Source: a virus. Taken from it: DNA of 14,785 nucleotides. This document shows, piece by piece, positions 3,953 to 14,785 of this stretch. A model generated the notes under the pieces. It had not been told where the DNA came from. It searched no databases and was given only the letters and a program-made list of their open reading frames with translations. Position 1 is the stretch's first letter, and every line of letters starts with the position of its first letter. Location of the stretch: UHGV virus genome UHGV-1885740. One strand, written 5' to 3'. A program made the translations under genes and the position numbers.

Positions 3953-3997
3953 TTTATTTTTAGATGGCCTTGACTCCAGGGCCATCAATAAAGTAAA
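3953..3997 (+). repeat. 45-bp direct repeat, copy 2 (promoter-like; TTGACT 3970-3975)
   Basis: Identical to 218-262; starts 3 nt after the stop at 3950; upstream of CDS 4042-4341. Confidence 0.8.
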
Positions 3998-4041
3998 TTT
4001 AAACCCTGTTAAAATAATCAGTGCAAAAAGGAGTAATGATC

Positions 4042-7113: not shown

Positions 7114-7332
7114 ATGACAACCCGTAAAATTAAAGTTGTTTGCATTGAATCGACTGGGGGCGCTTTTGTAGTTGGTCAGGAATATAATGCGGTTTTAATG
7201 GGTACGGATTGGAAGGTTAAAGGCCTTAATGGTTACGAGTACGGCACTACTTGCGGCTTGCGTGGTCGAATCGGATACGTGAGTTTAGACAATAAAGAAA
7301 AATTTGTTTTCGACACCGTTGTGAGTAAATAG
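7114..7332 (+). CDS. hypothetical protein (72 aa)
   Basis: ATG with a purine-rich Shine-Dalgarno site; ORF track. Confidence 0.75.
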   Translation: MTTRKIKVVCIESTGGAFVVGQEYNAVLMGTDWKVKGLNGYEYGTTCGLRGRIGYVSLDNKEKFVFDTVVSK

Positions 7333-7691: not shown

Positions 7692-7717
7692 AGGGGCTTA
7701 AAGCCCCTTTCTTTTTG
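7692..7717 (+). terminator. intrinsic terminator closing the rightward gene module
   Basis: Stem AGGGGC/GCCCCT with loop TTAA followed by TTCTTTTTG. Confidence 0.8.
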
Positions 7718-8322
7718 TCTCCTCTTTTCCTACCACAAATGGCCCCGCCTGGCAAATGGAATAATCAACAAGCCAGCAATTAACCCCACTGTACAAACAT
7801 ACATATAAAATAACTATTGCATAATTTTTCATTGTGTGGTAGCAGGGCCATTTTTACACGTTTTTCCTTCCAAAATTGCACGTAATGCAGCATTTGCACA
7901 AAATTTAACCTGATGCATATCTTCAATAGCTTGTCAACAACTAAAAATTCTTATAAGTCATACACTTACATAACTACAAAAGCGTTTTCTACGTGAAAAA
8001 TCGAGTATAACTATAGCCGCCAGATCTCAGAATTTACGTACGCTCGCCATTCTATAGCCTGCTAAGCATTTATTCCAACCATAGAATAACGGAATAGTCA
8101 ATACCTGCATAAAATAATTATTCGTGTAAACTGCATAACATAAATCGGCCCAAGTGTCAACATTTTTCGTAAACAGTCTGGAATTGTCACGTTAGGTTAC
8201 CATAAGCAGAGAAATCTTTAGTCGTCTAATGTTTACTGTACGTTACTATACTAACTGGAATCATTAGATGACTAATAGAAAGATAAGAAATAATTAACAA
8301 TACAATTATTCTATCTGTAACA

Positions 8323-8593
8323 ATAAGGCAACTATGCAAACGAATGGCATGGCGCGACGGAGTCGCGACATAATATAAAAGCAGTAACCATCACCCCCGT
8401 GATAGTTTGTCTGCAATCTATTAATCAGATCATAGTTGCCTTGTATTCAGTTAATCATGACATAACAAGCAAGGCAACTATAGATCTGCTAATAGTTGCC
8501 CTGCTTTTATATTATGTCATGCTAATTATAATCAGTGCGATTATTGTCATGTATAATTATTGTCATGCAAACGAATGGCATGGCTTATCATTT
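8323..8593. repeat. nested inverted/direct repeat element (about 270 bp)
   Basis: AAGGCAACTAT at 8325-8335 and 8471-8481, with inverted copies at 8432-8442 and 8492-8501; 18-bp direct repeat TGCAAACGAATGGCATGG at 8335-8352 and 8566-8583; 18-bp perfect inverted repeat 8367-8384 / 8501-8518; palindrome CGCGAC-GGA-GTCGCG around 8354-8368. Confidence 0.8.
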
Positions 8594-8610
8594 TTGAGTA
8601 AATAATCTAT

Positions 8611-8716
8611 ACGTTAACAGTAAGCTATGTAAACTATTGGGAATGTAAACAGTAAAGGTCATGAACAGTAAGCGAGCGAATAGTAATAGCGTGAATAGTG
8701 ACAGCGTAAACAGTCA
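8611..8716 (+). repeat. tandem iteron-like array (about 7 units, 15-16 bp period, core GTAAACAGT / GAAYAGT)
   Basis: Cores at 8614, 8629, 8645, 8661, 8677, 8692 and 8706; further isolated copies in both orientations at about 8169, 8843, 8989 and 9719. Confidence 0.75.
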
Positions 8717-9298
8717 TGCATGTCAATTATGTTCAGTGTGTTTAATGTGCTTAAAGTGTCATATTATGTCAGACAAGTTTTTCTCCTCTTTGTCAAGTGC
8801 TGCATGAAAAATTTACAAGCTTGTATGGTAGCATTTTTGCGGCCCTGTTTACATTCAGTGTTGTATGTATAATCCTTGTTGTGTGGGCGTTTAGACGTCT
8901 GGACGGTCAGAAGTCTGCAGGTCAATATCTAATCTATTGGCTGCTAACTATATCCCCCCACAAATAATAAGAAATATAATTGTTATGTGCGTAAACAGTA
9001 ACCTATGTTATCAATCCCTGTATGTATCGCCAGTGGTGCGCATAATGGGTATTATGTTAAATTGCCCGTAATGATAAAGATTCTCACAATGATAGGTATT
9101 CTCATTCACCCTCACAAAATAGATTGCAAATGTTGTGCCACTGTGTGAACGGCCTCACCTATTAATTTGCCTCACTGCCTCGATATTTGAGAATTATTAT
9201 AAGAATGAGAAGTATTCCCATTCCGTCCGCCTGGCAGCACTCCAGTCGCTACCGCTCATGACAGGGCAGAACTGGGCCCATTCAGATATTTCTGACTG

Positions 9299-9567
9299 AC
9301 TCTTCAGGTCTGTGTGGGAAAAGACAACCTCTCCGGCGGGACAGGGGGATATCTGAGGAGAAATTGCAGGTCAATTAAAAAATTTACGTGGTGTATGAAG
9401 CGATCTTCAGGCAAGGTATGTATTATGGGATGAAACCCTCTTCAGGCAATGATATTTGTGGGTGTGATATTTGCTGGAAAGCCAGATATGACGGGACTCC
9501 CGGCGGGGCAGGGGTAGTACAGACAGGGAAAATATGGGGATGTAGTTGGGTAAATTGATCAGGCAGG
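9299..9567 (+). repeat. cluster of CTCTTCAGG-family motifs plus a GC-rich direct repeat CCGGCGGG(R)CAGGGG
   Basis: CTCTTCAGG at 9300-9308 and 9438-9446 (also 9850-9858 and 10500-10508); GATCTTCAGG 9402-9411; GATCAGGCAGG 9557-9567; CTCCGGCGGGACAGGGGG 9331-9348 against CTCCCGGCGGGGCAGGGG 9497-9514. Confidence 0.7.
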
Positions 9568-10210
9568 TAGAGTATGGAATATGTTACAGGTATGTTAAAT
9601 AGGGAGGCTGAATATCTGTAGGATTTGTGTGTAAAATCAAAGACTTAAGTGGTGTTGCGGTATTTTCTATAAATAATTCAAGTTTAATAGGTAATATTTG
9701 TCTCTATTCGCTTTGTGTGGTAAACAGATTCAGATGAGATTGGTTTACAAGTGTATACATAATATACAAATTAAAGATACAAGAAACCCCCTCCCCCTTC
9801 GGCTACCATTCACCTTTTCCTCTGACTGGTACTTAAACACTTATTCAGACTCTTCAGGTTATCACCCATATATCATATGGCAGTGACTGGTGTCCTCCGG
9901 CCCCTCTTTCGTCACCCGTCCGCTTCGCCATGCTAATGCCATAGCCAATGGTTCGGTTGTTCACCCTGTTCACTCAGGTGTATCTCCATACCCCTTCAAA
10001 CCGAAGAGAACAGAAAACCCGAATTACTCGGTAAAAGAAAAGAGAAGAACTTAATTTTATCAGGATAGGCAAGAATGTCAAGGCATGACTGCTCACTAAA
10101 CAAGCAAACAGTCATGTGTGGAAGGTAAGTGATTGTGGTGGTGGGAAATTTAGTTGAAAGATGTGTTATAGGTGCGCTTCCAGCACTTTGGCCGGGCAGC
10201 TAATTGTGCG

Positions 10211-11763: not shown

Positions 11764-11790
11764 CTCAAATCTCCTTCATAGATAGTAAAA

Positions 11791-11810
11791 AGAGGGGCCC
11801 AAGCCCCTCT
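11791..11810 (-). terminator. GC hairpin, possible terminator or attenuator between leftward genes
   Basis: Palindrome AGAGGGGC-CCAA-GCCCCTCT; on the minus strand it is followed by TTTTAC, then the Shine-Dalgarno site of the next gene only about 15 nt away. Confidence 0.5.
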
Positions 11811-11818
11811 CTTTGTCA

Positions 11819-12124
11819 TTATTCTACAGAGCGTTTGAACAGAATGTCTGCCTCGGACATGTGCTCAACCTCTTCTTCGATTTTAGCTCGACGTTTTTCA
11901 GCCTCATAGCGAATATCGAACTCGGTAGCCACCAAAGATTTGATGAATTTAGGAGAATACAGGTGATCCTGCTTCTCAACGAGAATGATATCCTTAATGG
12001 CATCTTTCAGATCTTTAATCTGAAGTTGGAGTTCCACCAGTTCTTCGATTGTCTTGCGAAGGCGATCACGCTCTGCAGTGTCAGAAGGAAGAGAGGTGAA
12101 CAGTTCAACTTTAGATTTAGCCAT
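11819..12124 (-). CDS. hypothetical charged, probably helical protein (101 aa)
   Basis: ATG with AAGGAG 9 nt upstream; ORF track; heptad-like E/K/L-rich sequence. Confidence 0.75.
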   Translation of the reverse strand: MAKSKVELFTSLPSDTAERDRLRKTIEELVELQLQIKDLKDAIKDIILVEKQDHLYSPKFIKSLVATEFDIRYEAEKRRAKIEEEVEHMSEADILFKRSVE

Positions 12125-12152
12125 AGTAAGAGTCTCCTTATGTTGTTTTAAA

Positions 12153-12404: not shown

Positions 12405-12550
12405 TACTGCGCCCCTTGGGTAATAATACTGTATGTAAAACTTTAACCAGAGATGTGAATAACGCCCCAAAACACACCGATAGCGCTAAAACAGACAAGG
12501 CCATCATTAAAGCTTCAGTAAAATCAGTCACTCCTCACCTCTTGTTAGTC

Positions 12551-12579
12551 ACTATACTGTCATTTATCTTTGCCGTCAA
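12551..12579 (-). promoter_or_regulatory. sigma70-like promoter on the minus strand (TTGACG-17-TATAGT)
   Basis: Reverse complement of 12574-12579 is TTGACG and of 12551-12556 is TATAGT; overlaps the 3' end of CDS 12560-12823; about 140-nt leader before ATG at 12404. Confidence 0.6.
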
Positions 12580-12823
12580 GAACTTTTTTAAATCTTTCAG
12601 GGATATCGCCTGTTCTTAGATAGCTCATGACCTCACAAGGTTCCCACTTGAATTTCTTACAAAGCAGGGCGGCTGAGATTGTTTCATTGCGAAAAGAAAG
12701 GATATTAATATCCCATTCTGAGAACCCCAACTTCCGAAGGGTAGCTACAGAAATCCTCACCGCAACCCAGCAGCAAAAACATGCAACAAACGCCACTGCT
12801 ATAACCCACATCAGGATGTTCAT
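12560..12823 (-). CDS. hypothetical membrane-anchored protein (87 aa, N-terminal transmembrane helix)
   Basis: ATG with GAGGTG 5 nt upstream; N-terminal WVIAVAFVACFCCWVAV; ORF track. Confidence 0.65.
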   Translation of the reverse strand: MNILMWVIAVAFVACFCCWVAVRISVATLRKLGFSEWDINILSFRNETISAALLCKKFKWEPCEVMSYLRTGDIPERFKKVLDGKDK

Positions 12824-12832
12824 ACAAGCACC

Positions 12833-12916
12833 TCACTGAAATACAAGACACAGTGTTAAGGTTACAGACCAGCAAATAATTAACAGTGCCGTTGCAACCT
12901 TGGCAAGATTTATCAT
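12833..12916 (-). CDS. small hydrophobic peptide (27 aa, MINLAKVATALLIICWSVTLTLCLVFQ)
   Basis: ATGA overlap with the stop of CDS 12913-13200; AGAGG 4 nt upstream; its stop overlaps the Shine-Dalgarno site of the next gene. Confidence 0.4.
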   Translation of the reverse strand: MINLAKVATALLIICWSVTLTLCLVFQ

Positions 12917-13200
12917 AGTGCCTCTAAGATTTCATATCCTTCGGGTCGGAATACAAGCCACTCCGTGGCTCCGTTTGGTCGATACGCTTTATACAGAACA
13001 ACCTGATCTCGGCACATGCACATAGCTACATAGTTTTCATCCACGCCTGCAGCCTGCATTGCAGCTTCTTCTCCGGCAACTGCTTTGCTTACAACCTCCT
13101 TAGTAGGCAGGTGTGCGATCAGCTCGTCACCATCATTAATTCCAAAATGGCTGAGTTCTCCATTGGTATCTTTAATCTTAATCTTAACCAGATCTTTCAT
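12913..13200 (-). CDS. hypothetical acidic protein (95 aa), member of a paralogous family
   Basis: ATG with GGAGGAAGA upstream; TAATG overlap with the upstream gene; N-terminus KIKIKD...DGDELIAHLP resembles 13880-14137. Confidence 0.75.
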   Translation of the reverse strand: MKDLVKIKIKDTNGELSHFGINDGDELIAHLPTKEVVSKAVAGEEAAMQAAGVDENYVAMCMCRDQVVLYKAYRPNGATEWLVFRPEGYEILEAL

Positions 13201-13529
13201 TAGTCTTCCTCCAGGTTCAAAGGACCTAAGATTTCATATGCCAGATTAGAAGTTACCAGAGGGTCTTCTGCATCTTTAGTATTATACCACCCGTGAATAA
13301 CCAGAGTCCCACTCTGTTTCATATCTAACTGGAACTGTTCTGCAGTTTCCTCATCCATCTCTAAGATCTCCATAAGGTACTTGATGTCAGGAAGGTATGC
13401 AGCTGTTACAGTTCCCTCTACCAGACCTTCGGGCCAACCTACATCCGGATGACAAGTAGGAACCAGATTGGTCAGCTTAATGGTGTACGCTTTTTCTGCA
13501 CGAGCCTTCAGTAACTGGTCAATCTTCAT
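13200..13529 (-). CDS. hypothetical acidic protein (109 aa)
   Basis: ATG with AGGAGGA upstream; TAATG overlap with the upstream gene; ORF track. Confidence 0.75.
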   Translation of the reverse strand: MKIDQLLKARAEKAYTIKLTNLVPTCHPDVGWPEGLVEGTVTAAYLPDIKYLMEILEMDEETAEQFQLDMKQSGTLVIHGWYNTKDAEDPLVTSNLAYEILGPLNLEED

Positions 13530-13879
13530 TATTCGTCCTCCTCTTCGGTGCCTGCTTCCAGTAATAAGTTAAGAATATCTTCTGCACAAGGCTCATAGAA
13601 CTCTTGGCCTTCATTATCGATGATTTTGTAGTCATCTCCGCGAATAATCAGAGGATCACTCTCAAAATTATCGAGACCTTTAACAACGACAACACGATCG
13701 ATTGCCATCATTGTAAGAACTTTATCGACATCTTTCTCTGCTACACCATACTGCAGCAGAATGTCTTTGGTAGGAGGAACAGCATCCACCACAACACCGT
13801 TACCAAAACCTTCCGGTAAGTTAGCTAAAATATCTTCCGGAACCACACTAACATCAAAACCAGTAATTTCTACTTTCAT
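13529..13879 (-). CDS. hypothetical acidic protein (116 aa), paralogous family
   Basis: ATG with GAGGTG upstream, immediately after the upstream stop; shares DIL..NLP...GFGN with 13880-14137. Confidence 0.75.
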   Translation of the reverse strand: MKVEITGFDVSVVPEDILANLPEGFGNGVVVDAVPPTKDILLQYGVAEKDVDKVLTMMAIDRVVVVKGLDNFESDPLIIRGDDYKIIDNEGQEFYEPCAEDILNLLLEAGTEEEDE

Positions 13880-14137
13880 TTACAGCACCTCTTCGTCAGC
13901 TACTTCATAAAAATGGCCTGGGATTGCAATAGCGTTCTCACCTTCACCTACAAACACAGTTCCGTCAAGAATCAACATCATAAGAGCTTCTGGAATATCC
14001 TCTTCCTGAACGTTGCCAAAACCTTTAATCAGCTCGTAGGTTGGAAGATTTACCTCTAAGATGTCACCATCTTTAGAGCGGAAATCAACACCATCCTGAA
14101 TCTCTGCCATTTCAAGGTTTTTCAGTTTAATCTTCAT
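13880..14137 (-). CDS. hypothetical acidic protein (85 aa), paralogous family
   Basis: ORF-track frame 13880-14140 begins at TTG; ATG at 14137 is 7 nt after GGGAGA; first gene after the promoter/operator at 14169-14208. Confidence 0.7.
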   Translation of the reverse strand: MKIKLKNLEMAEIQDGVDFRSKDGDILEVNLPTYELIKGFGNVQEEDIPEALMMLILDGTVFVGEGENAIAIPGHFYEVADEEVL

Positions 14138-14168
14138 CAATCAGTCTCCCGTCTTGTTAAGATGAAGG

Positions 14169-14208
14169 TATTATTTCACACAGGGTTGGTGTTGTCAACA
14201 CCTGTGTG
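14169..14208 (-). promoter_or_regulatory. sigma70-like promoter (TTGACA-18-ATAATA) embedded in a palindrome (candidate operator)
   Basis: Reverse complement of 14193-14198 is TTGACA and of 14169-14174 is ATAATA; inverted repeat CACACAGG (14177-14184) / CCTGTGTG (14201-14208) with inner TGTTG-T-CAACA overlapping the -35. Confidence 0.6.
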
Positions 14209-14216
14209 CAAGAAAA

Positions 14217-14612
14217 TTACTGAAACAGTGCGGATAAATTACCTTCTGGTGGGAACTTATCTGCCAAAAACGGTGTTAGCACAGTAGCCTTCTGAAGATC
14301 TGGGGTCCACTCGTTGTTCAGAACATCCCAGTAGTACGCAATGTTGCTGTGTGGGTGCCGCATTACGAACTTTTTCCCTTCGTAGTCATCTGAAACCTCT
14401 ACAGAAGAAATAACAACAGAATCTTCAAGGGTTTCTTCATAGAAAGATCCGCCTTCAAATTTCCAACGAGATGCAAGAGCCCCTGCCTTGAACGCTGCAG
14501 ATAACGGACTGTCGGCAAGAACATACATTTCTTGCACTCTGTCGCTGCGATCTTTGCTTCTTACGTTGTATACAGTATCTGAGCTATACTCAACACGGTA
14601 TAGGCTTACCAT
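14217..14612 (-). CDS. hypothetical protein (131 aa)
   Basis: ATG with GAGGAGGTG 5 nt upstream; TAATG overlap with the upstream gene; ORF track. Confidence 0.75.
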   Translation of the reverse strand: MVSLYRVEYSSDTVYNVRSKDRSDRVQEMYVLADSPLSAAFKAGALASRWKFEGGSFYEETLEDSVVISSVEVSDDYEGKKFVMRHPHSNIAYYWDVLNNEWTPDLQKATVLTPFLADKFPPEGNLSALFQ

Positions 14613-14785
14613 TACCGCACCTCCTCAATAACTTCCACATCTGAACCCACCACAAATGCAAAAGGACAGGTTTCATGAAAGACATCCGGATCGCCGCCAA
14701 GCTTGCTAACAATTTCTCCACCACTAATAAACACAAGCTCACCGATATTCATCAGATTGCTGAAATAGTATCCATAATGATTAAA
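14612..14785 (-). CDS. hypothetical protein, C-terminal 57 aa only (gene starts beyond window end)
   Basis: Minus-strand frame is open from the window edge to TAA (14612-14614), which overlaps the next ATG; reads ...FNHYGYYFSNLMNIGELVFISGGEIVSKLGGDPDVFHETCPFAFVVGSDVEVIEEVR. Confidence 0.55.
   Translation of the reverse strand, partial: FNHYGYYFSNLMNIGELVFISGGEIVSKLGGDPDVFHETCPFAFVVGSDVEVIEEVR

Follow-up and report, generated by a model that had tools for sequence, protein, structure and literature searches.

A stem-loop overlapping the P150 promoter of an rV5-like phage and its likeness to PeSL cassettes

Promoter-early stem-loop (PeSL) cassettes have been described in the T4-like phages RB49/phi1, T4/PST, and KVP40/nt-1 (Arbiol et al. 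2010, PMC2839356; Comeau et al. 2014, PMC4122927), and their definition allows five positions for the stem-loop, one of them being over the -35 box (PMC2839356). In the coliphage rV5, the promoter P150 was listed at 100005..100050 in Table S4 of Kropinski et al. (2013, PMC3606486), as the product of a consensus search with no experiment behind it, and GenBank DQ832317 carries it as regulatory feature 100027..100055. That publication treats P150 as a consensus promoter only, and the words palindrome and hairpin are absent from its text (PMC3606486). Our literature searches found no report of PeSLs in rV5-like phages and no Vequintavirus transcriptomes. Here, we describe the equivalent site in the window, the whole stretch of 14,785 nucleotides of virus genome UHGV-1885740 that was analyzed. 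The promoter is already known, while the hairpin that overlaps it is undescribed yet of a known type, that of the PeSL-type cassettes.

Genomic setting and layout of the promoter

The window comes from a Vequintavirus, an rV5-like coliphage whose closest relative is phage nomine (99.4% identity in a megablast of positions 12500-14785). The same search matched 119 phage records, nearly all at full length and with 90-99% identity, and all of them are rV5-like coliphages of the genus Vequintavirus. Eighteen GenBank records named "Campylobacter phage" (MG0656xx), with Campylobacter jejuni given as the host, share 94-98% identity with this region of an E. coli Vequintavirus, which suggests mislabeling or contamination of these entries.

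The annotations of nomine and rV5 show two long convergent arrays of small genes with no known function, with an unannotated gap of ~2.5 kb between them. In the window, this stretch without annotated genes covers positions 7710-10210 and corresponds to the region marked as "non-coding" in the rV5 map. Its core (8320-8590) is AT rich (35% GC). There, ATAGTTGCCYTG occurs at least four times, in both orientations (8325-8336, 8432-8443, 8470-8481, and 8492-8503), together with perfect repeats of 18 nt (inverted; 8367-8384/8501-8518) and 20 nt (direct; 8334-8353/8565-8584). From this arrangement of repeats, the core looks iteron-like and is a candidate replication origin.

The site studied here is located within the leftward array, which is equivalent to the rV5 unit ORF82-163 and runs on upstream past the right end of the window. 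It occupies the 79-nt gap between the homologues of ORF149 and ORF150 (Table 1). As genes on the same strand continue upstream beyond the end of the window, the site is not the start of an operon but an internal promoter. The initial annotation had placed it in the promoter of the leftward operon; the promoter and its direction hold, but it lies inside a long gene array. It consists of TTGACA and AATAAT separated by 17 bp, with an extended -10 TG, and its 11/12 match to the consensus makes it the top sigma-70-like site of the window. Its sequence, CACACAGGTG-TTGACA-ACACCAACCCTGTGTGA-AATAAT, is identical to that of rV5 P150, so that the proposal of a promoter at this position agrees with a published prediction. 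The -35, the TG, and the -10 are all invariant in the 21 loci (12 unique sequences) compared. We consider P150 to be probably active, and judging from the position of the -10, transcription would start near 14163.

The sequence previously described as a palindrome with flanking arms at 14169-14208 is present as stated. The plus strand at 14177-14208 reads CACACAGG GTT GGTGTTG T CAACACC TGTGTG, and the complete layout on the minus strand is TAA-TTTTCTTG-CACACAGG-T-GTTG-ACAACAC-CAAC-CCTGTGTG-A-AATAAT-...-GGGAGA-N8-ATG. Both dyads exist, but they are not concentric: the inner one is centered at 14195 and the outer one at 14192.5, 2.5 bp out of register. Because the centers differ, the two dyads are actually joined in a 12-bp stem that has a single bulged base and closes on a 7-nt loop.

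Table 1. Coordinates of the features at and around P150 and of the P164 hairpin loci (positions of the window unless a locus is named)
Feature	Position	Strand	Remarks
Upstream gene	14217..14612	-	131 aa; rV5 ORF149 homologue; PHROG 7379; function unknown; TAA stop at 14219..14217, 8 nt before the hairpin
T-rich spacer, stop codon to hairpin	14209..14216	-	TTTTCTTG; the four stem-adjoining bases are hypervariable (CTTG, ATGC, ATTC, ATAC, CCGG)
Outer arms	14177-14184 and 14201-14208
Inner TGTTG-T-CAACA	14190-14200
Hairpin 5' arm, transcribed strand	14201..14208	-	CACACAGG; promoter positions ~-45 to -38
Inner stem 5' half GTTG	14196..14199	-	After the bulged T at 14200; overlaps the first three bases of the -35
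-35 hexamer TTGACA	14193..14198	-	Invariant in 21/21 loci examined
7-nt loop ACAACAC	14189..14195	-	Includes the A/G polymorphism disrupting the inner DNA palindrome
Inner stem 3' half CAAC	14185..14188	-	Within the promoter spacer
Hairpin 3' arm	14177..14184	-	CCTGTGTG; within the promoter spacer; last two bases are the extended -10 TG
-10 hexamer AATAAT	14170..14175	-	17-bp spacer; invariant
Shine-Dalgarno GGGAGA of the downstream gene	14145..14150	-
Downstream gene	13880..14137	-	85 aa; rV5 ORF150 homologue; PHROG 12359; function unknown
P164 hairpin, rV5	L013 ~12087-12126
P164 hairpin, nomine	L001 ~7683
P164 hairpin, metagenome contig	L017 ~8702

The genes on the two sides of the gap differ in their conservation. 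The upstream protein shows at least 97.7% amino acid identity across the 119 Vequintavirus records (tblastn), whereas the downstream one is hypervariable, with 83-98% amino acid identity in the genus and 50% in phiWec189. The downstream gene is present in 119/119 records, and there is no indel at the P150 site among these relatives. In a sliding comparison, phiWec189 has a divergent block at ~13910-14145 with 40-70% nucleotide identity that ends at the promoter cassette, while the cassette itself has 83-93% and the upstream gene 97-100%. The downstream gene also shows a mosaic pattern, with patches of 70% identity at 13940-14029 in several phages.

Folding and conservation of the hairpin

The transcribed strand folds with -17.6 kcal/mol (z = -3.64), and none of 200 shuffled sequences was as stable; the opposite strand of the same 66-nt stretch gives -18.8 kcal/mol (z = -2.47). 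Rfam gave no match anywhere in the window at the gathering threshold, nor any around the site when E values up to 1 were admitted. We rejected an intrinsic terminator, as neither strand has a U-tract following the stem (3' flank, AAAUAAUACC), and with it the alternative that had been named as refuting the operator, a hairpin acting as a plain terminator. The site was not reported by a terminator scan of the window, nor is it found in the rV5 terminator list (PMC3606486). Intrinsic (Rho-independent) terminators share with P150 a stable hairpin a few bases past a stop codon, but theirs is followed by a U-tract.

A stem of this kind could have no separate function, being a chance repeat at one of ~33 promoters that was kept through the conservation of a short intergenic region in a young genus. 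The frequencies of such repeats fit this explanation. In the rV5 genome, a perfect inverted repeat of at least 8 bp encloses 1.4% of control hexamers, so ~0.46 such cases are expected among the 33 published promoters, and one 8-bp enclosing repeat alone is unremarkable. Hairpins around the -35 are not clearly enriched either: enclosing repeats of at least 7 bp occur at 5/33 published rV5 promoters, a count that falls to a nonsignificant 3/31 (p = 0.13) once the divergent P010/P011 pair is removed, and there is no enrichment of enclosing repeats around TTGACA over the whole rV5 genome (11% versus 12%). The inner palindrome is equally unremarkable, because TTGACA is half-palindromic by itself, so that the 11-bp sequence TGTTGACAACA requires just three bases beyond TG+TTGACA, and because this sequence occurs three times in the rV5 genome. 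What chance accounts for less well is the extension of the stem past the 8-bp arms to 12 bp, with the z score of the transcribed strand given above.

The comparison of relatives contributes to both sides. Our set comprised 21 loci with 12 unique intergenic sequences, taken from GenBank, IMG/VR, and metagenomes. A search for more distant relatives (blastn in distant mode, tblastn with both flanking proteins, IMG/VR, and metagenomes) recovered Vequintavirus only, at no less than 85% nucleotide identity; both flanking proteins are confined to the genus, so the divergence sampled is shallow. Overall, the sampled relatives share 94% identity in this region, as would be expected if the repeat were simply carried along. 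Against this, the variable sites are unevenly distributed, with 4/24 in the hairpin outside the promoter elements versus 16/36 in the other free intergenic positions (Fisher p = 0.03), and variation reaches every one of the four bases that adjoin the stem on its 5' side, which vary more than any others in the gap. The 8-bp arms contain two substitutions only, both of them C-to-T in the 5' arm (in FV3 and in metagenome Ga0129313), and both result in a U·G pair on the transcribed strand and an A·C mismatch on the opposite one. In phiWec189 and Ga0129313, which have weakened stems, a G preceding the stem and a C following it provide an additional G-C pair at the base. The changes observed keep or restore pairing on the transcribed strand, which argues against a stem free of any constraint, with the proviso that two G·U-compatible changes have a ~1-in-4 chance of appearing without it. 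No two-sided compensatory change was found at the P150 hairpin among the 12 unique variants, where 9/15 pairs are invariant and two vary one-sidedly, and for this reason the evidence for the hairpin from the comparison is suggestive and stops short of proof. Considering both sides, we regard a repeat with no function of its own as unlikely, without being far-fetched.

A proposed composite cassette and its competitors

The reading that we favor, if tentatively and at somewhat below an even chance, is that P150 and its hairpin form a PeSL-type composite promoter/stem-loop cassette, set among the small early genes that make up the long leftward array of an rV5-like phage. The near-consensus sigma-70 promoter P150 would re-initiate transcription for the next block, which would extend from the ORF150 homologue down to a canonical terminator at ~11790-11810. 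Transcripts initiated at P150 would lack the hairpin, and only the read-through RNA coming from upstream promoters would contain it. In this read-through RNA, the 12-bp bulged hairpin would form 8 nt past the upstream stop codon, where it could attenuate or pause read-through, protect the 3' end of the upstream message, or both. The downstream module would thereby be insulated and expressed for the most part from its own promoter. The conserved cassette might also be a recombination linker, or crossover point, for exchanging the hypervariable downstream gene. Both the role at the RNA level and the role in recombination are inferred, and attenuation is conjecture, as canonical intrinsic termination is not predicted for a stem that no U-tract follows. 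A cassette of this type requires no repressor. For this phage group, it has been proposed that an Srd-like anti-sigma protein shuts off the sigma-70 early promoters (PMC3606486).

The initial annotation had instead assigned the palindrome to a dimeric repressor, and we consider an operator plainly unlikely. Under that explanation, a phage or host DNA-binding protein sitting on the duplex repeat would block RNA polymerase at the -35 and spacer, leading to repression or autoregulation of the ORF150-ORF158 block. The position of the inverted repeat, which spans the -35, the spacer, and the extended -10, is appropriate for this, as are outer arms that are nearly invariant across the genus next to adjoining bases that vary. 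There are also proteins, such as p4 of phi29, that recognize inverted repeats spaced by about two turns over a -35. The symmetry of the site itself is less favorable. The dyads share no axis, one bulge is required to join them, and the outer arms are 24 bp apart center to center, so the site lacks one common axis flanked by two equivalent half-sites. TTGACA dictates part of the inner palindrome, which has been degraded in at least four lineages, by an A-to-G change in nomine, V18, ev146, and phiWec189 and also by a G-to-A change in phiWec189. Arm substitutions are one-sided, which means that DNA symmetry is lost while RNA pairing is kept. The search for other copies of the palindrome that had been suggested as a check returned none in the window or in the whole rV5 genome: in these 138 kb, allowing up to 9 mismatches for the 32-mer and up to 2 for the 15-bp palindrome GGTGTTGACAACACC brought up no further match.

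A cognate repressor was equally hard to find. The only DNA-binding candidate in the leftward block is the 101-aa protein encoded at 11819-12124 on the minus strand, which matches PHROG 639, "transcriptional regulator" (E = 1e-21), but has just sub-threshold GapR-like or MecI-like matches and no solved relative; elsewhere in the rV5 genome, ORF79 is annotated as GntR-like. The 101-aa gene is located directly upstream of the canonical terminator, 2 kb downstream of P150. The ten neighboring proteins have no Pfam domain of any kind above threshold, and so neither a helix-turn-helix nor another DNA-binding one, and comparison of the neighbors with Pfam, PHROGs, NCBIfam, and PDB sequences provided no convincing repressor. 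Among host sites, the CRP, FNR, LexA, DeoR, GalR, and FadR-type consensus sequences were compared by eye, and none fits.

A DNA switch, in which supercoiling-driven cruciform extrusion would take the -35 out of the duplex and modulate the promoter, is very improbable: the -35 would indeed fall within the loop and inner stem if a cruciform formed, and an E. coli promoter has reportedly been engineered so that cruciform extrusion regulates it, but extrusion is disfavored by the imperfect repeat (one bulge) and its 7-nt center, and the C-to-T changes in the arm make the DNA cruciform weaker on one of the strands.

Other modules and comparison with known systems

Other promoter-like sequences in these genomes are combined with stem-loops. 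Two near-identical 48-nt intergenic cassettes are found in the window at 218-265 and 3953-4000, with a weaker copy at 553-600. They consist of a stop codon, a T-rich tract, and a GATGGCC-TTGACTCCAG-GGCCATC hairpin around a -35-like TTGACT, followed by a -10-like TAAACT, a Shine-Dalgarno, and an ATG. rV5 has three copies (115223, 114592, and 110848), and 0/3 appear in the published promoter list. Separated by 3.7 kb, these PeSL-like repeats could mediate deletions. Among the published rV5 promoters, P121 (10-bp arms) and P164 (7-bp arms) likewise enclose their -35, and the P164 hairpin shows a compensatory T-A to C-G change: where rV5 has ATCCTTG...CAAGGAT, nomine and a metagenome contig have ATCCCTG...CAGGGAT.

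A true module indel concerns this last promoter. In nomine, a 545-bp module begins with a GGGG-loop-CCCC stem-loop and continues with an AT-rich tract, the P164 promoter-hairpin, and the ORF164 gene, ending at a second such stem-loop (L001 7648-7665 and 8211-8228). The P164+ORF164 module is missing from the window, which has a single chimeric GGGG-loop-CCCC stem-loop at 7692-7708, followed by TTCTTTTT. A chimera of this kind is as expected of recombination between the two nomine-type stem-loops. Such features of the cassettes and modules correspond to what has been reported of PeSLs in T4-like phages (PMC2839356; PMC4122927). A further gene of 72 aa, at 7114-7332 on the plus strand, is a homologue of rV5 ORF166 that is found in the window and in rV5 but not in nomine, and the leader/Shine-Dalgarno motif ACTAA-CA-AAC...CCACA-AAAGAG is directly repeated on either side of it. 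These repeats suggest that single-gene indels may also arise via recombination between conserved leaders.

We can extend these observations to a broader proposal, which we see as possible though rather doubtful: promoter/stem-loop cassettes would be recombination linkers outside the T4-like phages as well, and Vequintaviruses would exchange, gain, or lose self-expressed single-gene modules at them (ORF150, P164+ORF164), the P150 hairpin being one such linker and an insulator too. If the hairpin insulates and the cassette recombines, PeSL-type modular shuffling would reach an unrelated group of therapeutic coliphages. This would help to account for the swapping and independent expression of many small early genes, probably involved in host takeover or anti-defense. 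The single site is of modest interest, because its promoter is already published, and the broader pattern of modules bounded by promoters and stem-loops in the genus Vequintavirus is the more interesting lead. There is also a warning for annotation, in that a palindrome over a -35 is not necessarily an operator, because TTGACA itself is half-palindromic.

Compared with the repressor operators that overlap promoters (lambda OR/OL, P22 Mnt/Arc, and the phi29 p4 sites), P150 has in common an inverted repeat over the -35 and spacer, reaching as far as the TG. It differs from them in having no single dyad axis, no convincing cognate repressor, and no additional sites, and in a symmetry that is not kept in its relatives. 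The likeness to PeSLs is closer. Both are intergenic among small ORFans, with the upstream stop codon in a T-rich stretch, a near-consensus sigma-70 promoter (here TTGACA-17-AATAAT), a stem-loop over the -35 box, which is a listed subclass and is represented here by the -17.6 kcal/mol fold, and the Shine-Dalgarno and start codon of a small downstream gene, so that the intergenic layout TAA-TTTTCTTG-hairpin/promoter-GGGAGA-N8-ATG is the one expected. Both also have G·U-tolerant stems and a neighboring gene that differs between close relatives. Unlike the PeSLs of T4-like phages, this one belongs to a Vequintavirus, and where theirs are repeated G-run/C-run stems, the P150 stem CACACAGG/CCTGTGTG is unique in the genome, as is the 32-mer that contains it. 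There is also no indel at the P150 site. The better PeSL analogues in the window are the three-copy family (218-265 and 3953-4000) and the GGGG-loop-CCCC junction at 7692-7708.
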